Assembly (NCBI GenBank): GCA_011620555.1
Contig: WOYY01000070.1
Location: 12,163-76,162, forward strand
DNA: 64,000 nucleotides
Reading direction: 5' to 3'
Source of the DNA: Anaerolineaceae bacterium
GTDB lineage: Bacteria > Chloroflexota > Anaerolineae > Anaerolineales > Anaerolineaceae
The notes under the pieces were generated by a model. The model was not told the DNA's origin. It was given only the letters and a program-made list of their open reading frames with translations, and made no database searches. Positions 5,403-30,088 of the stretch are shown here, piece by piece. The position numbers were made by a program, and so were the translations under genes. How positions within the stretch are numbered: the first letter of the stretch is position 1; each line of letters starts with the position of its first letter.

Positions 5403-6082
5403 ACGGGTTCAGCAATTACCTGCGGATGGTCTGGCAGGTCTTCCGCAAGGACCTGCAGGTGGAATGGCGCGGGCGGCAGGGGCTGCCCGTGATGCTGATC
5501 TTCGCCCTGCTGGTCGTCTTCCTGTTCAACTTCGCCCTGCAGCTGACCCCCGGCCTGCAGGCCGGCCTGGCCGCCGGGCTGCTCTGGGTCTCGCTGGCCT
5601 TCGCCTCCACTCTGGGGCTGAACCGCAGCGTGAGCCTGGAGGGTGAAAACAACGCCCTCGCTGGCCTGCTTTTGGCGCCCGTGGACCGCTCAGCGATCTT
5701 CTTTGGCAAGACGCTCAGCAATCTGACCTTCACCTTCCTGGTCGCTCTGGTGCTGCTGCCCGTTTTCAGCCTCTTTTATCAACAAAACATGCTCAACCCC
5801 CGCCTCGTGCTGGTGATCCTGCTGGGCCTGGGCGCCTATACCAGCCTCGGCACCCTGCTGGCCGCCCTCAGCATCCAGACACGCACCCGCGACGTGCTGC
5901 TGCCTGTGCTGCTCTATCCGCTGGCGCTGCCGGTGCTGATCGCGGCCGTGGAAGCCAGCCGGGGCGTCCTCGCCGGTCAGCCTCTCGCTGAGCTTCAGTC
6001 CTGGCTCTCCCTGCTGATCGCCAGCAATATCCTTTTCCTGGCCGCCGGCCTGCTGCTTTTCGATACCATCCTGGAGGAATAA
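5399..6082 (+). CDS. ccmB: Heme exporter permease
   Basis: VFRKDLQVEWR start, six TM helices, LLPVLLYPLALPVLIAAV motif. Confidence 0.9.
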   Translation: MNGFSNYLRMVWQVFRKDLQVEWRGRQGLPVMLIFALLVVFLFNFALQLTPGLQAGLAAGLLWVSLAFASTLGLNRSVSLEGENNALAGLLLAPVDRSAIFFGKTLSNLTFTFLVALVLLPVFSLFYQQNMLNPRLVLVILLGLGAYTSLGTLLAALSIQTRTRDVLLPVLLYPLALPVLIAAVEASRGVLAGQPLAELQSWLSLLIASNILFLAAGLLLFDTILEE

Positions 6083-12004: not shown

Positions 12005-12616
12005 TCAGCGCGAAAATCGCTGCTGCTTCCAAATATCCGCTTCATTGCTATAGCCGTTGGCTTCCCAAAAGCCCAGTTGATCCGCGCTTAAAAATTCGAG
12101 GCCGCGCAGCCACTTGGCGCCCTTCCAGAGGTAGACGTCTTTCAGGTCGTCCCGGCCCGGGATTGCGCCCGTGACGCCGCGCAGGGGGTAGCCGTGTTCC
12201 GGCGTCAGCGGCTGGCCGTCATAGTGGGTGGCCAGCAGGAAATTATCCTGGAGCATCACGTCCAGCGGCAGGTTGGTGGTATAGCCCTGATCGGCATGTT
12301 GGACAACGAACCGGGCGGCTGGTCTGGGTTTGATGAAGCCCTCGTCGATCAACTGCCGGAGAGAGATTCCCTCCCAGAGCATATCCAGCTTGCTCCAGGT
12401 GGTCACGCAGTGCAGGTCGAGGGTGAGTTGCACACGCGGCAGCGCCATCACCTCATCCCAGGTCCAGACCACAGGCTCTTCCACCTCGCCCCAGACTCTG
12501 AAATCCCAGGTGCTGGGATCAAAGGCTGGGACCTTGCCATAGTGCAAGGTGGGGAAGCGCTCCGTCAGGTGCTGGCCAGGGGGCAGCCGATCATTTCGTT
12601 TCATCATGCCTCTCAT
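12005..12616 (-). CDS. Sulfite oxidase-like molybdopterin oxidoreductase
   Basis: LPPGQ start, DLHCVTTWSK, PEHGYPLR, WKGAKWLRGLEF, GFWE..GYS. Confidence 0.88.
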   Translation of the reverse strand: MRGMMKRNDRLPPGQHLTERFPTLHYGKVPAFDPSTWDFRVWGEVEEPVVWTWDEVMALPRVQLTLDLHCVTTWSKLDMLWEGISLRQLIDEGFIKPRPAARFVVQHADQGYTTNLPLDVMLQDNFLLATHYDGQPLTPEHGYPLRGVTGAIPGRDDLKDVYLWKGAKWLRGLEFLSADQLGFWEANGYSNEADIWKQQRFSR

Positions 12617-24335: not shown

Positions 24336-25052
24336 TTACTCGAATCCATTTCTTTTTCTATGCAACACCAGATATTTCGCGTTCGGTTTATCTGCTATTG
24401 GATTTGTAAATTGATTGGTTTTTTCTAAAACCAAATTTATCATTTGACTTTGTGACTTTTTCTTTAATATTCTAAGATCATCTGAAAATGAGATGTATCC
24501 ATATTCAACTAAGGGGTCATGAAAGCGGCATAGGCACACAATATTGGCGAGGTCTCCTCGACCTTCATAATTATCAGCCCAACGTGCGAGGTGGGCAGAA
24601 ATTAGAAATTTTTCATCGCTGATGTCACATAAGGCACATCGGGAATGATAATTGTTCAATGTTAAACTTCGAAGTCTTCGTTGACCAATTCTTTGCCTTG
24701 TTTCGATGGTCTTTTCACTGACATTTACGTTATTGAAATTCAGCTTGTGTTCTTTTATTGCCTTGTCAATTACCTTATTTGGTAAATCTTCATGTTCAAT
24801 ATCGATATTATGGATCAGCGAATAATAAGTTCCGTGCTTTCCTCGAATGAATTCAAGTAGGTTTTCATCTCTGAGTTCTTGCAGAACCCGACTCAAGGTT
24901 TGAGAGGGCGTTTCTCCAGTGGAGTCAGCTTCCTGAGTTATGAGCGGGAGCTGCTGATCAATTAATTCTTGACGTGTAAAAATTTTACTGTCTTTTGTTT
25001 CGGTTAGTCGGACTATTCCATTTATGACGGCATCTCTCCAGATAAGCGTCAT
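24336..25052 (-). CDS. HNH endonuclease with N-terminal winged-helix-like domain (candidate modification-dependent restriction enzyme)
   Basis: CALC...SAHLARW...NIVCLCRFH HNH core; N-terminal LSRVLQELRDENLLEF..GKHGTY; AAGGAG RBS; AT-rich. Confidence 0.8.
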   Translation of the reverse strand: MTLIWRDAVINGIVRLTETKDSKIFTRQELIDQQLPLITQEADSTGETPSQTLSRVLQELRDENLLEFIRGKHGTYYSLIHNIDIEHEDLPNKVIDKAIKEHKLNFNNVNVSEKTIETRQRIGQRRLRSLTLNNYHSRCALCDISDEKFLISAHLARWADNYEGRGDLANIVCLCRFHDPLVEYGYISFSDDLRILKKKSQSQMINLVLEKTNQFTNPIADKPNAKYLVLHRKRNGFE

Positions 25053-25081
25053 AGTGGCTCCTTGATTGATCTCACAAGCAA

Positions 25082-26545
25082 CTATTCCGGCCAGTTCTCG
25101 TGCCACGGGGTGGCCAGTTGGTAGGCATGGCCCACCTGGAAGAGCAGGTCTTCCCTGAAATGCGGGCCCATCAACTGCATGCCGACCGGCATCCCGTCCG
25201 AGTCCGGCCCCACGGGGAAGGCCAGGCCGGGGACGCCGGCCAGGTTGGCCGGCAGGGTGAAGACGTCTTCGAGGTACATCGCCAGCGGGTCATCGGTGTG
25301 CTGGCCGAACTTGAAAGCCGTGGTGGGGGCGACGGGCGCGGCGATCACATCCACCTGCTCAAAGGCCAGGTCGAAATCGCGTTTGATCAACGTGCGGACC
25401 TTTTGGGCCTTGCCATAGTAGGCGTCGTAGTACCCGGCGGAGAGCGCATAGGTCCCGAGCATGATCCGGCGCTTGACCTCGGGGCCGAACAGCCGGCCGC
25501 GGGTCTCGGTGAACAGCGACCAGAGGTTATTGTCTTCGCCCAGTCGGGGGCCAAAACGGATGCCGTCGTAGCGCGCCAGGTTGGCGGAGGCCTCGGCTGG
25601 CGCGATCAGGTAGTAGACCGGCAGAGCATACTCGGTGTGGGGCAGGTGGATCGGGATGGCTGTGGCGCCCTGCGCTTCCAGCTGGGCGATTGCGGCCCGC
25701 ACTCGTTCTTCCACTTCGGGCTGGATGCCCTCGATGAAATATTCCTCGGGCACGCCGACCCGCAGGCCTTTGAGCGAGTCGCTCTCGGGCAGGGTATACT
25801 CCGGGACGGGCAGCTGGACGCTGGTGGCATCCAGCGGGTCGAACCCGGCCATGTGCTGGAACAAGGTGGCAACATCGGCCACGTTGCGGGCGATCATCCC
25901 GACGGTGTCCAGCGAGGACCCATAAGCCACCAGGCCATACCGCGAGGTGCGGCCGTAGGTGGGCTTGATGCCCGTGGCGCCGCAGAAGGAACAGGGCTGC
26001 CGAACGCTGCCGCCGGTATCGGTGCCGAAAGCCGCGGGGGTCATCCGGGCGGCGACGGCCGCGGCCGACCCGCCGCTGGAGCCGCCGGGCACCCGGCCTG
26101 TGTTCCAGGGGTTGCGGCTGGGGCCATAGGCGGAGTTCTCCGTGGAAGACCCCATCGCGAATTCATCGGTGTTGGTCTTGCCGAGGGGAACCACACCCGC
26201 ATCCAGCAGGCGCTGGACGGCGGTGGCGGTGAAGGGCGGGATGAAGTTTTCCAGGATTTTGGAGCCGCAGGTGGTGCGGACGCCCTCCAGGCAGAGCACG
26301 TCTTTGACCGCCAAAGGCAGCCCTGTCAGCGGGGGCAGATCGTCGGGCTGGCTGGCCCGCAGCTTGTCCGCGTTTTTGGCGGCGGCCAGGGCTTTCTCCG
26401 GCGTGAGCGTCAGGAAGGCGTGAATTTGGGGTTCCAGCGCGTCAATCCGCTGCAACAGAGCCTGGGTCAGTTCCAGGCTGGAAAAGTCCCCAGCCTGCAA
26501 GCCAGCCAGGCAGGCGCGCACGCCCAGCTGGGTCAGGTCGGTCAT
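25082..26545 (-). CDS. gatA: Asp/Glu-tRNA amidotransferase subunit A
   Basis: GKTNTDEFAMGSSTENS, PGGSSGGSAAA, GTDTGGSVRQP, EVKRRIMLGTY. Confidence 0.98.
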   Translation of the reverse strand: MTDLTQLGVRACLAGLQAGDFSSLELTQALLQRIDALEPQIHAFLTLTPEKALAAAKNADKLRASQPDDLPPLTGLPLAVKDVLCLEGVRTTCGSKILENFIPPFTATAVQRLLDAGVVPLGKTNTDEFAMGSSTENSAYGPSRNPWNTGRVPGGSSGGSAAAVAARMTPAAFGTDTGGSVRQPCSFCGATGIKPTYGRTSRYGLVAYGSSLDTVGMIARNVADVATLFQHMAGFDPLDATSVQLPVPEYTLPESDSLKGLRVGVPEEYFIEGIQPEVEERVRAAIAQLEAQGATAIPIHLPHTEYALPVYYLIAPAEASANLARYDGIRFGPRLGEDNNLWSLFTETRGRLFGPEVKRRIMLGTYALSAGYYDAYYGKAQKVRTLIKRDFDLAFEQVDVIAAPVAPTTAFKFGQHTDDPLAMYLEDVFTLPANLAGVPGLAFPVGPDSDGMPVGMQLMGPHFREDLLFQVGHAYQLATPWHENWPE

Positions 26546-26838
26546 TCCTGTCCTCCCAAAATCGGGGGGACCTGGAATTGGTCATCCCGTGTGTTGGCGG
26601 CGTTTTTCAGCACGTCTTTGGTGGGCAGGCCCGGCCGGGAGCGATCTTCGCGCAGGCGGAGCTGCAAGTCGAGGACGCTGGCTGTGGGCGGGATCTGATC
26701 GGTGGCCAGTTCGTCCAGCCGGGCGGCATAGTCCAGGACGTCCGAGAGCTGTTCGGCGTAGCGCTGTTGCTCTTCCTCGGTCAATTCCAGGCGGGCCAGA
26801 GCGGCAATGTGTTCAACTTCTTCAATGGTCAGCTTCAT
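26542..26838 (-). CDS. gatC: Asp/Glu-tRNA amidotransferase subunit C
   Basis: EEVEHIAALARL, LRED, overlaps the gatA start. Confidence 0.95.
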   Translation of the reverse strand: MKLTIEEVEHIAALARLELTEEEQQRYAEQLSDVLDYAARLDELATDQIPPTASVLDLQLRLREDRSRPGLPTKDVLKNAANTRDDQFQVPPILGGQE

Positions 26839-26846
26839 GATGCCTA

Positions 26847-26852
26847 ATTATA
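26847..26852 (-). promoter_or_regulatory. -10 box, probably leaderless gatC transcript
   Basis: TATAAT 8 nt upstream of the gatC ATG, no SD. Confidence 0.5.
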
Positions 26853-26921
26853 ATATGGAAGGATGGGGTCAGAGGTGAATGGGGGCGGGAGAATGGAGAA
26901 AAGACTTTAATATTAGGTAAA

Positions 26922-27242
26922 GGTGGCCCCTGAATCTTTGCTGATCCTTCAGGCCAGTCCTTAACAGATCTTCCCTGAGCTTTTAGGCCCAGGGAAGGTG
27001 TAATTAATAGGTGTCCAGGATGCCGCCAGAGGCCTGACCCGGTGCAGCCTGATCCTGGATTGATTTGATCTAAATCAAAAGGTCACGGGGCATGAACACA
27101 CCCGTGACCGACAAAGGAGCTAGGGGGTCAGAAACCTTCTAGCCTATTCCAGAGGCGCGTTCATCCCGTTTAGGGTTTGCAAGTACAAGGACTTTCGCCA
27201 TAAAAACGGGCCTCTGCCTTTCTGAAGTCTCGTGAAGGGAAA
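26922..27242 (-). ncRNA. Candidate structured non-coding RNA of unknown family
   Basis: At least 6 local hairpins, nested long-range stems, 5'/3' end pairing, upstream promoter, no credible ORF. Confidence 0.5.
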
Positions 27243-27248
27243 GCTAAG

Positions 27249-27276
27249 ATGGTATTGGAAATGGTATTCTTGTCAA
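27249..27276 (-). promoter_or_regulatory. Sigma70-type promoter upstream of the structured element
   Basis: TTGACA-16 bp-TACCAT; the -35 overlaps the TGA of the ABC ATPase gene. Confidence 0.55.
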
Positions 27277-28043
27277 GTGGCATATCCGTTTTCATCCCGC
27301 AGGCTTTCCCGCAGCTTCTGCGCCAGGGCGCTGAACTTTGGCGCATAGCGCAGATCGGGCGTGCGCGGGCGGGGCAGGTCGATCGGCAGGTCAAGCTTGA
27401 ACATCCCCGGGCGGGGGGAAAGCACCAGTACCCGGTCTGAGAGGTAGATCGCCTCTGAGATGGAATGGGTGACCATCAGCACGGTCTTGCGCCGGGCCTG
27501 CCAGATATGCAGCAGTTCATCGCCCATCCGCTCCCGGGTGAGGTCATCCAGCGAGCCGAAGGGTTCATCCAGCAGGAGCATATCCGGGTCCTGCATCAGC
27601 GAGCGGGCGATCGCCACCCGCTGAGCCATCCCACCGGAAAGGTCGCGGGGGTAGGCCTGCTCAAAGCCTTCCAGTCCCACCAGCTGGATCAGATCCATGG
27701 CGCGCTCCTCGATCTCGGCCGCTGGCGCGCCCTGAAGCTCCAGGGGCAGCCCGACGTTGTCAATCACCCGCCGCCAGGGCATCAGGTTCGCTTTCTGGAA
27801 GACCAGGCCCACCTTCGGCTGGTTCTGATTGAAAGCGAAGGTGCCGTGGGTGGGCGGGATCAGCCCGGCCAGCACGCGCAGCAGGGTGCTCTTGCCGCTG
27901 CCGGAGGGGCCGATCAGCGAGACGAACTCATTGGGCGCCAGCGTGAAGCTGAGGTCATGCAGCGCGTGCACGACCCCGCTGGCATCGCTGAAAGTGACGC
28001 CCAGGTTTTGGACGGAGAGCGCCTTCTCAGGGGAGAAGGTCAT
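27273..28043 (-). CDS. ABC transporter ATP-binding subunit (NitT/TauT family) of the FMN-riboswitch operon
   Basis: GPSGSGKS, LSGGMAQR, LLLDEPFGSLD. Confidence 0.92.
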   Translation of the reverse strand: MTFSPEKALSVQNLGVTFSDASGVVHALHDLSFTLAPNEFVSLIGPSGSGKSTLLRVLAGLIPPTHGTFAFNQNQPKVGLVFQKANLMPWRRVIDNVGLPLELQGAPAAEIEERAMDLIQLVGLEGFEQAYPRDLSGGMAQRVAIARSLMQDPDMLLLDEPFGSLDDLTRERMGDELLHIWQARRKTVLMVTHSISEAIYLSDRVLVLSPRPGMFKLDLPIDLPRPRTPDLRYAPKFSALAQKLRESLRDENGYAT

Positions 28044-29034
28044 TGGTAAAAGCCTGATCCAGGTCCTGGGTTTCGGTCAGCAGCCCCATATCCAGCAGGA
28101 CGGCCTGCATATTGACCCAGCCGACCGGCTCGCTGTAGCCCGGTTGGTCGGTCTGCCAGAGCTTGATCGATTCGCTCAGGATCTCATGCTGGAGGTCGGG
28201 GTCAGCCTCGGCCAGATTTTCGACATAGGCTTTGCTGATCTCATAAGCTTCATCAGGGTCGGCCAGCGTATCGGCGATCCCTTTCAGCAGAGCTTCAATG
28301 AAGGCCTCGACCTGTTCGGGATGTTCAGCGAGCAGGGTCTCATTGGTGACCAGGCCATTGGCGACCAATTGCAGATAGTCCGCCACGCGGATCACGTCCA
28401 CATCGTAGCCCTGGGCGCGCAGGACGACCGGCTCATTGGCGAGGTAGATCACGGCCGCTTCCACCTGGCCGGTCGCCAGCGCTTCCACCTGGTTGAAGCC
28501 GATGGCAAGCAGGTCCACATCCTCTTCGGTCAGGTCCACCGCGCTGAGCAGGGCCTGCATGCCGATGTAGGAAGCGCCATAGAGGCCGGGGATGCCAACG
28601 GTTTTACCGGCTAAATTCTCCGGCACCCGGATCTCTGCATCGGCCAGCGAAACAATCCCCACCGGAAATTGCTGGTACCAGGCTGCCACATAGGTCACAG
28701 GCAGCCCTTGGGACCGGGCGAGCAGGACCTGTTCGCCGCTGGCGACGGCAAAGAGCTGTTCGCCCGCGCCAATCAGGGCCACACCGTCAGCCTCATTGCC
28801 ATATTCGAGCGAGACGTCAAAGCCGGCATCGAGGAAATAGCCCTTCTCCAGGGCGACATAGACCGGGGCAAACTGGATGTTGGGGATATAGCCCAGGGTG
28901 AGGGCCGTTGAAATGACCTCCGGACTGGCTGGGGGCGTTTCCGCAGGCTGGCAGGCCGAGAGGCTGCCCGCGCCTGCCGCTAAAATGAGGCTGAGGAGAA
29001 GTAGGACTTTTCTTTTCAAGAATAACGTGCTCAT
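28027..29034 (-). CDS. ribY: NMT1/THI5-like substrate-binding lipoprotein, probable riboflavin-binding RibY
   Basis: LSAC lipobox, LGYIPNIQFAPVYVA, GIPGLYGASYIG; under an FMN riboswitch. Confidence 0.75.
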   Translation of the reverse strand: MSTLFLKRKVLLLLSLILAAGAGSLSACQPAETPPASPEVISTALTLGYIPNIQFAPVYVALEKGYFLDAGFDVSLEYGNEADGVALIGAGEQLFAVASGEQVLLARSQGLPVTYVAAWYQQFPVGIVSLADAEIRVPENLAGKTVGIPGLYGASYIGMQALLSAVDLTEEDVDLLAIGFNQVEALATGQVEAAVIYLANEPVVLRAQGYDVDVIRVADYLQLVANGLVTNETLLAEHPEQVEAFIEALLKGIADTLADPDEAYEISKAYVENLAEADPDLQHEILSESIKLWQTDQPGYSEPVGWVNMQAVLLDMGLLTETQDLDQAFTNDLLP

Positions 29035-29059
29035 ATTTTCTTTCTCCAAATCTGTGGGT

Positions 29060-29869
29060 TTAGATCTGGTCCTGCCGCCAGGATTGCCAGGCGAGGACGC
29101 GTCTCTCGATCAGCAGGACGATGCCATAGAGCGCCATCGCCATCGCGATCAGGGCGATCACGGCGACAAAGACCAGGGCGGTGTCATATTGCCCGCGGCC
29201 GACATTGATCAGGAAGCCCAGGCCCCGGTCCGCGCCGACCAGTTCGCCCACCACCGCGCCGATTACGGACAGGGTCGCCCCAACCCGCAGGCCGCCAAGA
29301 AAGATCGGCAGAGCGGCCGGGACTTCCAGCTTCCAAAGCGTCTGCGCCCGGGTGGCGTTCAGGGAACGCATCAGGTCGCTCAGGTCTTTGGGTACTTCCC
29401 GCAGGCCGACGACCGTGTTGATCAGGACGGGGAAGAAGACGATCAGCGCGCAGATCAAGACCTTGGAGAAGATGCCCGGCCCGAACCAGATCACCAGCAG
29501 CGGAGCGATGGCCACCATTGGGATGCTCTGGCTGGCGACGAGGTACGGCGCGACCAGCTTCTCCAGCGCCGGGGATTTGGCCAGCAGATAGCCCAGGACG
29601 GTGGCAAAGAAGCTGCCCAAGAGCAGCCCGGAGAGGACTTCAAAGAGGGTGGTCAGGGTATGGCGGGTCAGCTGGCCGGATGCCAGCGATTTGAGAAACC
29701 GTTCCCAGACCAGACCGGGACCCGGCAGGATGAAAGCCGGCAGCTTCAACACCCGGGCGAGCAGCGCCCAGAGCGCGAGGCCTCCCGCCAGGGAGAGCGC
29801 GAGGAACACAGCCCGTTTCCAGGGATTTGGTTTGGGTTGCTGTGGTTTGGGTTTGGCCTTGGTCGTCAT
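29060..29869 (-). CDS. ribX: ABC permease, probable riboflavin transporter RibX
   Basis: SQSIPMVAIAPLLVIWFG, EAA-like DLMRSLNAT; true start is MTTKAK (29869), just after the riboswitch terminator, not 29917. Confidence 0.75.
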   Translation of the reverse strand: MTTKAKPKPQQPKPNPWKRAVFLALSLAGGLALWALLARVLKLPAFILPGPGLVWERFLKSLASGQLTRHTLTTLFEVLSGLLLGSFFATVLGYLLAKSPALEKLVAPYLVASQSIPMVAIAPLLVIWFGPGIFSKVLICALIVFFPVLINTVVGLREVPKDLSDLMRSLNATRAQTLWKLEVPAALPIFLGGLRVGATLSVIGAVVGELVGADRGLGFLINVGRGQYDTALVFVAVIALIAMAMALYGIVLLIERRVLAWQSWRQDQI

Positions 29870-29871
29870 AC

Positions 29872-29901
29872 AAAAAAAGCCCTGACTCTTTGAATCGGGG
29901 C
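29872..29901 (-). terminator. Riboswitch expression-platform terminator
   Basis: Minus strand gccccgattc-aaa-gagtcagggc followed by TTTTTTT. Confidence 0.8.
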
Positions 29902-29927
29902 ATGGGCGGATATCCATAGAATACCGA

Positions 29928-30070
29928 CACCTTCTTCCATTCGGACTGTCACCGCCGGCACCGGGATTTCACCGGTTCATGCATGTTTAGTATGCTCGTG
30001 GGCTACCCCTTGGGGGGATTACCACCGGTCGGGAATTGGGTCTGAGGACCCGCACCCTGCCCCGAAGGTG
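29928..30070 (-). ncRNA. FMN riboswitch (RFN element)
   Basis: Minus strand CUUCGGGGCAGGGUG...AAUUCCCGACCGGUGGUAA...AGCCCACGAGC...CCGGUGAAAUCCCGGUGCCGGCGGUGACAGUCCGAAUGGAAGAAG matches the RFN consensus; P1 caccuuc/gaaggug. Confidence 0.95.
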
Positions 30071-30088
30071 TTTGATTTTGATACTGGA

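Follow-up and report, generated by a model that had tools for sequence, protein, structure and literature searches.

Contig WOYY01000070.1 of an Anaerolineaceae bacterium (Chloroflexota, Anaerolineae; assembly GCA_011620555.1) was analysed over the 64,000 nucleotides (nt) from position 12,163 to 76,162 of its forward strand; this whole stretch is referred to as the window, and its own numbering is used below. In the window an ATP-binding cassette (ABC) transporter ATPase gene and gatC, both on the minus strand, are separated by an intergenic gap (Table 1) whose G+C content is 49%, versus 59% across the window. The gap region has no second copy within the 64 kb and, being unique there, was ruled out as a repeat or mobile element. 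A preliminary description, made from the letters alone, had seen in it a highly structured non-coding RNA (ncRNA) candidate. The structure is borne out, since the gap folded as minus-strand RNA reaches −132.2 kcal/mol (z −3.62), a value equalled by none of 100 shuffled sequences; the plus strand gives a weaker signal (z −2.19), and all the stems listed at that time are present with the minus strand as the RNA sense. We report that the element contained in this gap is, almost certainly, homologous to the leader of rsgA, the gene of a 30S-assembly GTPase, in related bacteria, and that it has been truncated by a deletion.

Relatives of the element and their genomic context

A scan of species genomes based on GatC led to two metagenome-assembled genomes (MAGs), L002 and L003, in which ~260 nt from the start of the element, with the promoter, immediately follow the same ATPase gene, with three open reading frames (ORFs) between the element and gatC. 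Scanning of metagenomes with the conserved 20-mer GGCNAAAGTCNTTGTACTTG added L020/L021, L027 and L032, the last being the closest relative of the window copy. The same arrangement recurs in each of these loci: a clean intrinsic terminator closes the element, and rsgA and a gene with an RNHCP domain (PF12647) come next, in that order. When homologues of the L032 RsgA protein at 57-88% identity were considered, each of the contigs taken (11/11) had the element in the ~500-nt gap before rsgA. The relatives amount to 16 independent copies, from Anaerolineae MAGs and metagenome contigs, and together with the window copy they make a family of 17 members.

Matches obtained with nhmmer and covariance models lie directly upstream of rsgA in all 16 independent relatives, and the succession of rsgA and the RNHCP gene downstream of the element is equally constant (16/16). 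The upstream neighbour is in most cases the ATPase gene of an ABC operon of the flavin mononucleotide (FMN)-riboswitch type, and other genes are found in L027, L038, L040, L046 and L048. Given a variable neighbour upstream and a constant rsgA-RNHCP pair downstream, the element belongs to rsgA. Conservation independent of one downstream gene, which would mark a stand-alone small RNA (sRNA), was not found, as rsgA adjoins the element in 16/16 relatives. The stable ncRNA of a new class proposed earlier is thus a real, conserved, promoter-driven structured RNA, but not a stand-alone one: in every relative it serves as 5′ leader to the rsgA-RNHCP operon.

To assign the window copy, a family covariance model of 160 positions was built from 15 relatives, leaving the window copy out (effective sequence number 2.7). 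The window copy matches it over positions 1-160 of 160 with 133.3 bits (E 5e-30), while elsewhere in the window and in unrelated loci the model gives weak chance matches at most.

The RNHCP gene encodes a zinc ribbon, and in 16/16 relatives it follows rsgA with overlapping or abutting stop and start codons (L032 5907-7375, minus strand, and equivalents in L002-L049). This arrangement suggests that the RNHCP domain acts with RsgA in 30S maturation. One of the relatives, L036 (protein P0003), is a 3.47-Mb contig that bears the nr label 'uncultured Hyphomonas sp.'; its synteny is of the Anaerolineae type (ABC operon, leader, rsgA, RNHCP gene, gatCA) and the taxon label is probably wrong.

Organization of the leader

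The promoter noticed in the preliminary description, TTGACA-16-TACCAT, is of the sigma-70 type and is present at 27276..27249 on the minus strand, at the fixed upstream distance seen across the family. It is kept in the relatives, with the form TTGACA-16/17-TA(C/A)AAT in close and mid-distance ones. It is weaker in the two most distant, L046 (TTGACT...TAAAGT) and L048, where the −10 element is unclear. The predicted start of transcription lies at about 27243-27241. The earlier preference for the minus strand is upheld by the homologues, where the downstream genes are co-oriented and where hairpin T1, described below, keeps U-A/U-G pairs that correspond to C-A mismatches on the opposite strand.

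The leader opens with a short upstream ORF, uORF1, that looks coding and translated. It has 18-22 codons across the family (20 in 13 of the 17 members) and the consensus MAKV.V......YERAS..., a peptide kept in 15/17 members. A Shine-Dalgarno (SD) sequence of the GGAGG type, SD1, precedes the start codon by 7-10 nt in 16/17 members, L037 being without it, and AUG and UUG alternate as start codons. Changes in codons 2-4 (Ala2, Lys3, Val4) fall mainly on third positions (GCU/GCA/GCG, AAA/AAG, GUC/GUU/GUA), and in L039 UAC GAG replaces UAU GAA, a synonymous exchange that is compensated in T1. Tyr13 is found in 12 of the 13 twenty-codon members, the window having Asp. Codons 4-8 form a loose Val/Leu-rich stretch that is lost in L039, L042 and L048; in L048 the whole peptide is unrelated (MQKQSGVVPQMDVHARTCVDAC) and the RNA helices are kept. 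Scans of the uORF1 peptides with NCBIfam and Pfam returned no family. In L027 (~5470-5530, minus strand) a 1-nt deletion places the two halves of uORF1 in different frames, each half matching the family, which is either an assembly error or a real frameshift.

Three local structures accompany the ORF. P1 is formed by AGAGGCACG and CGCGCCUCU, so that SD1 is paired with codons 15-17, and is predicted independently by RNAalifold. P2, whose sequences are unrelated between members, is a hairpin at the stop codon or immediately beyond it; most of the 17 members have it, the weak or missing cases being L039, L040 and L042. T1 consists of GGUCACGGG, an 11-nt loop and CCCGUGGCC followed by a U-tract, and is also predicted by RNAalifold. 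The T1 3′ strand, CCCGUGGC, is identical in 16/16 relatives, the window having A at one U-G/U-A position. The U-tract is the probable 3′ end of an RNA of ~170 nt.

The most informative pairing is an alternative one. In the family, GUAUGAACGCGCC, that is codons 12-16 of uORF1, pairs with GGUGUGUUCAUAC, made up of the end of the T1 5′ stem and the T1 loop. The resulting anti-T1 helix comprises 13 bp with 98.1% of cells paired, and pairing falls to 23-61% when the partner is slid by 1-3 columns as a control. Double changes are found from GC to AU (twice) and from UA to CG, compensatory at 2 pairs, and in L048, the most distant member, 11-12 pairs remain despite several changes on both strands. 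Apart from L046, which was mis-picked, the duplex energies lie between −17 and −23 kcal/mol (z −2.4 to −7) in every correctly scored member. Pairing with codons 12-16 explains the conservation of the T1 loop, which would otherwise be odd. Anti-T1 is incompatible with both P1 and T1, codons 12-17 being shared by the two folds, and the OFF state (P1 with T1) and the ON state (anti-T1) are only 0-7 kcal/mol apart in 13 relatives. Hence, as in leader-peptide attenuators, the terminator and antiterminator alternatives share a strand that overlaps the leader ORF.

A second terminator, T2, follows in the full-length copies as a clean hairpin with a U-tract, 10-330 nt beyond T1 (16/16 relatives). Its 5′ arm is complementary to the T1 3′ strand in every relative (−15 to −19 kcal/mol), and this is true even of L046, in which T2 is otherwise different. 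Only ~20-60 nt separate T2 from the next start codon, leaving no room for a separate rsgA promoter. In five members codons 5-8 (GUUGUACUUGC) form a long-range pairing with GCAAGUACAAC, immediately ahead of T2 (z −2.6 to −3.7); this pairing was rejected as a core feature, as it is confined to a sub-clade and absent in distant members.

Two further elements were seen in the neighbourhood of T2. A second short ORF, uORF2, of 43-55 codons and with a strong SD sequence (GAAAGGA), begins 20-60 nt after T2 (L032 7318-7485, minus strand; L003 3104-3271; L034 2394-2558) and continues in the −1 frame over the SD sequence and AUG of rsgA. Just ahead of the rsgA SD sequence, closer relatives share a small conserved hairpin, CAGCA-loop-UGCUG, which L046 and L048 lack and which the deletion has removed from the window.

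Comparison with the relatives alters some of the features first proposed. The pseudoknot AGUCCUU/AAGGACU and the closing helix cttcag/ctgaag both have their 3′ partner outside the conserved element, and neither partner sequence is seen in the matching stretch of L032; the supposed loop AGUCCUU is in fact codons 4-5 of uORF1. The end then given to the RNA, GGGGCCACC, is not the 3′ end of the family.

Membership of the element in a known class was also considered, that is, a divergent signal recognition particle (SRP), RNase P, 6S, transfer-messenger RNA (tmRNA) or T-box RNA. Its only support is short resemblances pointed out in the preliminary description (GGUCAGG; UGUACUUGCAAACC; GAAAGUCC), and the resembling pieces are ORF codons or variable sequence; of the two SRP-like fragments, one is uORF1 codons 5-9, the other belongs to the variable middle domain, and no SRP model matches. 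An RNase P-like P4 made from GAAAGUCC...AAGGACU was rejected, its first strand being ORF codons and its second window-specific sequence, and so was an SRP helix 8 from GGUCAGG, whose domain is variable or absent in distant members. The absence from Rfam supposed earlier is confirmed: a search with Rfam 15, including the SRP, RNase P, 6S, tmRNA, T-box, riboswitch and ribosomal-protein leader models, gave no match in the region at gathering score or even at E ≤ 10. Eleven full-length relatives gave none at gathering score, L032 showing solely sub-threshold matches to the T2 hairpin, and ARAGORN reported neither tRNA nor tmRNA. Moreover, the architecture is a row of local hairpins, in which long helix 5/8, P4 pseudoknot and tRNA-like domain are all missing, so that a known RNA of this kind is, as far as these tools reach, practically out of the question.

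Table 1. Features of the intergenic region, in window coordinates
Feature	Position	Strand	Remarks
Intergenic gap, 434 nt			Between ABC-transporter ATPase gene 27273-28043 (-) and gatC 26542-26838 (-)
−35 hexamer TTGACA	27271..27276	-	TTGACA in 15/16 relatives, TTGACT in L046
−10 hexamer TACCAT	27249..27254	-	Relatives mostly TACAAT/TAAAAT/TATAAT
Conserved leader core, SD1 to T1 U-tract	27066..27225	-	Full-length match to the family covariance model
P1 5′ strand AGAGGCCCG	27207..27215	-	Holds SD1; 84% of cells paired, RNAalifold
uORF1, 20 codons and UAG	27139..27201	-	Translation MAKVLVLANPKRDERASGIG*
Anti-T1 5′ strand GGAUGAACGCGCC	27154..27166	-	Codons 12-16; 13 bp, 98.1% of cells paired
P1 3′ strand CGCGCCUCU	27151..27159	-	Codons 15-17; 84% of cells paired, RNAalifold
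P2 hairpin GCUAG...CUAGC	27119..27143	-	5′ strand contains the uORF1 stop codon 27141-27139
T1 hairpin: GGUCACGGG, loop UGUGUUCAUGC, CCCGUGACC	27081..27109	-	95.8% of cells paired
Anti-T1 3′ strand GGUGUGUUCAUGC	27090..27102	-	Last two G of T1 5′ stem and whole T1 loop; pairs with codons 12-16
T1 U-tract UUUUGAUUU	27072..27080	-	U-rich tract after T1 in all members
Hairpin H3 UUGAUUU/AAAUCAA	27060..27078	-	Overlaps T1 U-tract; conserved solely in closer relatives
Truncated variable middle domain	27014..27059	-	Closed by window-specific helix UCCAGGAU/AUCCUGGA; L032 homology ends at 27031
Junction segment	26923..27030	-	108 nt replacing ~1.87 kb of L032 (rest of middle domain, T2, uORF2, rsgA, RNHCP gene)
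Retained operon hairpin CUUCCCUG...CAGGGAAG	26970..26997	-	Homologue of the L032 terminator after the RNHCP gene
gatC promoter-like site TTCACC-18-TATTAT	26850..26879	-	Outside the element; gatC-proximal 84 nt conserved with L032

Truncation of the leader in the window

With L032 as the reference for the deletion, window positions 28100-27031 align with L032 8731-7622 and window positions 26922-26502 with L032 5754-5334. Neither rsgA nor the RNHCP gene was found by tblastn in the 64-kb window, and the element is followed by gatC instead. T2 is missing, as the homology with L032 stops short of it, and its place is taken by the hairpin that in L032 stands, with the same CUUCCCUG/CAGGGAAG stem, directly after the RNHCP stop codon; several other relatives have, as read by eye, a different GC-rich hairpin near the end of the RNHCP gene. 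From these breakpoints, the absence of both genes from the window and the retention of the operon hairpin it follows that a deletion of ~1.8 kb took away the 3′ part of the leader with T2, uORF2, rsgA and the RNHCP gene, and joined the stump of the leader to the old operon terminator. The junction is common to two strain variants that have diverged by ~3%, one from an oil-field and one from a soil metagenome. A change in one variant breaks one pair of the UCCAGGAU/AUCCUGGA helix on the minus strand. Two changes lie within uORF1 codons 18-19 and both are synonymous, although two sites are too few to decide between drift and a use of its own.

What has been left is a nearly complete switch. The window copy keeps the promoter, with the −10 element weakened to TACCAT, SD1, an intact uORF1, P1, P2 and T1 with the U-tract, together with H3 and the first part of the middle domain. 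An extra stem, CCCGUUU/AAACGGG, has arisen from three substitutions peculiar to the window, which also turn the conserved Tyr13 codon into Asp and put a mismatch in anti-T1. P1, T1 and anti-T1 can all still form, the latter as a 13-bp duplex of −19.0 kcal/mol with one internal mismatch, and the balance is 10.8 kcal/mol towards P1 and T1. On this evidence we consider it fairly probable that window positions 27276-26960 (minus strand) are an orphaned, 3′-truncated copy of an attenuator-like leader of ~330 nt that precedes rsgA and the RNHCP gene in related Anaerolineae. The likely 3′ end of the transcript in the window is T1 (~27072) or, further on, the retained hairpin (~26965). All that the copy produces is probably a short RNA, ~170-280 nt in length and encoding a peptide of 20 residues, no gene being left for it to regulate.

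That the element is at present a leader, or an additional promoter, of gatCAB through read-through of T1 and the retained hairpin seems very unlikely. In favour of this, the element and gatC have the same orientation, the gatC promoter region lies ~120 nt downstream of the element, and the retained hairpin has a poor U-tail (AUCUGUU). However, T1, which is terminator-like, and that hairpin, poor as its U-tail is, stand between the two, and the promoter-like region of gatC is shared with L032, where the rsgA-RNHCP pair and a terminator intervene. The idea of a gatC leader as such was rejected, in agreement with the caution of the preliminary description on this point: gatC keeps a conserved upstream region of its own, the element sits before rsgA in the relatives, three ORFs separate it from gatC in L002 and L003, and in L001 gatC occurs without the element.

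The oil-field metagenomes X1 and X2, which hold the organism of the window, also hold a second, different member of the family. It was seen in contigs with T1- and T2-like pieces (on L032, 7522-7564 and 7661-7706) and a different middle domain.

A model for the regulation of rsgA

We propose, with a confidence somewhat better than even and on the basis of the conserved pairings, that the leader of rsgA attenuates transcription in a ribosome-dependent manner, as leader-peptide attenuators do. On a leader free of ribosomes, P1 would form once codon 17 has been transcribed and sequester codons 12-17; T1 and then T2 would fold, and transcription would stop. A 30S subunit or 70S ribosome that occupies SD1 and the early codons would block P1, as would a ribosome at the stop codon, which by standard footprint arithmetic would cover codons 16-20 and the P2 5′ strand. 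Codons 12-15/16, being free, would then capture the T1 loop and 5′ strand and T1 would fail. The freed T1 3′ strand would pair with the 5′ arm of T2 before the T2 3′ arm has been made, so that T2 would fail too, with read-through into rsgA. The logic would be 1:2/3:4/5:6 versus 2:3/4:5. A ribosome stalled over codons 10-19 would favour T1 again, and the net effect would be to couple rsgA transcription to prompt loading and transit of ribosomes on uORF1. The switch may also work with the opposite polarity.

Several points weigh against such an attenuator and against the orphaning of the window copy. Covariation is limited because the sequences of the relatives are closely related, with 2-3 truly compensated pairs per helix and 2.7 effective sequences in the model. 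The relay between the T1 3′ strand and the T2 5′ arm rests on an invariant strand and lies, for that reason, beyond the reach of covariation. Minimum free energy folds with the uORF masked always retain T2, anti-T1 appearing in some members, which makes the relay a kinetic hypothesis only. Among the members, L037 is without the P1 5′ strand and uORF1 of L027 is frameshifted, and no run of codons for one amino acid occurs in uORF1. The transcription ends, the ribosome occupancy and the regulation of the leader are inferred from sequence and predicted folds. As regards the loss of rsgA, no contig at least 80% identical in nucleotides to the L032 rsgA was found in the source metagenomes, which is no proof of its absence.

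Expression data bear on the question in part. None of the RNA runs holds the window sequence. In X5, one oligo-dT sediment metatranscriptome, contigs of relatives are present; one unitig, of 246 nt, stops precisely at the T2 U-tract (L032 7524), and the one after it starts at the rsgA AUG. A further point against attenuation is that in X5 the leader and rsgA are about as deeply covered as the ATPase gene and gatC, at about 7-15, or 7-11 as contig depth, with DNA carry-over possible, so that no obvious attenuation is visible there. These data are compatible with transcription of the leader and do not demonstrate attenuation.

Part of the evidence could be read in another way, namely that the promoter, uORF1 and T1 make up a small gene in its own right, for a micro-protein of 20 residues or a dual-function sRNA, that merely stands beside rsgA and survives in the window through a function of its own. 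The unit has a consensus promoter and a terminator-like T1 straight after the ORF, MAKV.V......YERAS is preserved in all members but two, the ORF is intact in the window and in both strain variants after the loss of rsgA, with synonymous changes alone, and the window copy is biased to ending at T1. We regard this as unlikely, since in 16 relatives the unit is never found away from rsgA and the distance from T2 to the start codon leaves no space for rsgA to have a promoter of its own. Moreover, the YERAS codons are exactly the strand common to P1 and anti-T1, and these pairings explain their conservation; in L048 the peptide is not conserved and the helices are, and in the window the conserved Tyr13 is lost.

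The likeness of T1 and T2 raises a different possibility: the leader would bind a protein or ligand, for instance RsgA, the RNHCP protein or a ribosomal component recognising the twin hairpins, and uORF1 would not be the sensor. T1 and T2 have a common stem sequence and the T1 3′ strand is invariant in 16 relatives, as for a binding site present twice; feedback control through leaders is frequent among translation-apparatus genes, and uORF1 lacks an amino-acid-specific codon run. Against it, the conservation of the T1 loop is fully explained by its pairing with codons 12-16, with compensatory changes, while SD1, the start codon, the ORF length and the placing of the stop codon in P2 are all conserved and would be needless in a pure protein-binding site. 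No riboswitch or ribosomal-protein leader model matches either. We judge binding of this kind improbable, slightly more so than an independent small gene.

Returning to the attenuator, one may go further and speculate that the family is a sensor of translation capacity, in which ribosome loading on a 20-codon ORF whose SD sequence is part of the switch would set the levels of RsgA and the RNHCP protein through the T1/T2 relay, the orphan in the window having been kept as an independent short RNA or micro-protein gene. We put this forward tentatively, as a possibility that is doubtful when taken as a whole.

Relation to known leaders

In amino-acid operons (trp, his, leu, thr, ilv, pheA, pheST) leader-peptide attenuation depends on where the ribosome stands on the leader ORF: either a 1:2 and 3:4 terminator arrangement forms or a 2:3 antiterminator. 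Like the leaders of these operons, that of rsgA has a short ORF, overlapping alternative segments and an intrinsic terminator before the structural genes. Unlike them, it has no codon run for a single amino acid, and its segment 1 is an SD sequence, so that ribosome loading, and not stalling alone, would be sensed. It also differs in having two serial terminators with matching stems, in its genes, a 30S-assembly GTPase and an RNHCP protein, and in its hosts, the Anaerolineae of the Chloroflexota.

In the growth-rate attenuator of Escherichia coli ampC and in the pyrBI leader, ribosome occupancy of a tiny leader ORF governs a terminator and ties expression to translational activity. The rsgA leader would similarly read ribosome occupancy rather than one metabolite; however, it is not related to them in sequence, its conserved ORF has ~20 codons, P1 masks the SD sequence, and there is a second terminator, which the relay would couple to the first. 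In the erm, vmlR and bmrCD leaders, stalling on a short ORF induces a downstream gene that acts on the ribosome or on translation. These leaders have in common with that of rsgA a short ORF and a terminator/antiterminator pair, whereas rsgA encodes a housekeeping assembly factor, uORF1 contains no known stalling motif, and in L048 the peptide has wholly diverged with the switch kept. The L20 leader of infC-rpmI-rplT and the L4/S10 leader are bound by a ribosomal protein and contain no sensing ORF. They share with the rsgA leader a terminator that stands ahead of genes of the translation machinery; the rsgA leader differs in having an ORF and in matching no corresponding Rfam model.

The family matches no Rfam, Pfam or NCBIfam model and is an undescribed cis-regulatory family; a full-text search of the literature found no paper on an rsgA leader or its attenuation, on RNHCP, or on a structured RNA of Anaerolineae. 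It adds an undescribed, well-conserved cis-regulatory RNA family to the Chloroflexota (Anaerolineae), a phylum with few characterised RNA regulators, and gives the first hint, within the libraries and literature searched, of a leader-peptide attenuator controlling rsgA transcription. The SD sequence in P1 and the twin, cross-complementary terminators offer a testable model for matching an assembly factor to ribosome activity. In addition, the RNHCP domain, whose function is unassigned, becomes linked to 30S biogenesis because its gene is invariably coupled to rsgA. For genome scans there is a word of caution, since what had seemed a highly structured intergenic 'ncRNA' is what remains of an mRNA leader, and the 'loop' best conserved in it is a tiny ORF.

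Neighbouring genes

Downstream of gatC, a 256-codon ORF (24336-25106, minus strand) overlaps the 3′ end of gatA by 25 nt; Cys/His-rich motifs stand close to its C-terminus, and Pfam gave no match at E ≤ 0.001. The gatC promoter-like site ends ~11 nt before the ATG, with no SD sequence between (26839-26879, minus strand), an arrangement conserved with L032; the gatCAB mRNA may be nearly leaderless. On the other side, 2.7 kb from the element, lies the sole Rfam family that reaches gathering score in the 64-kb window, an FMN riboswitch at 29925-30073 on the minus strand (90.6 bits). It heads the ABC operon formed by a permease (29060-29917), an NMT1/THI5-type binding protein (28027-29049) and the ATPase (27273-28043), all on the minus strand, which is probably a flavin-related importer.

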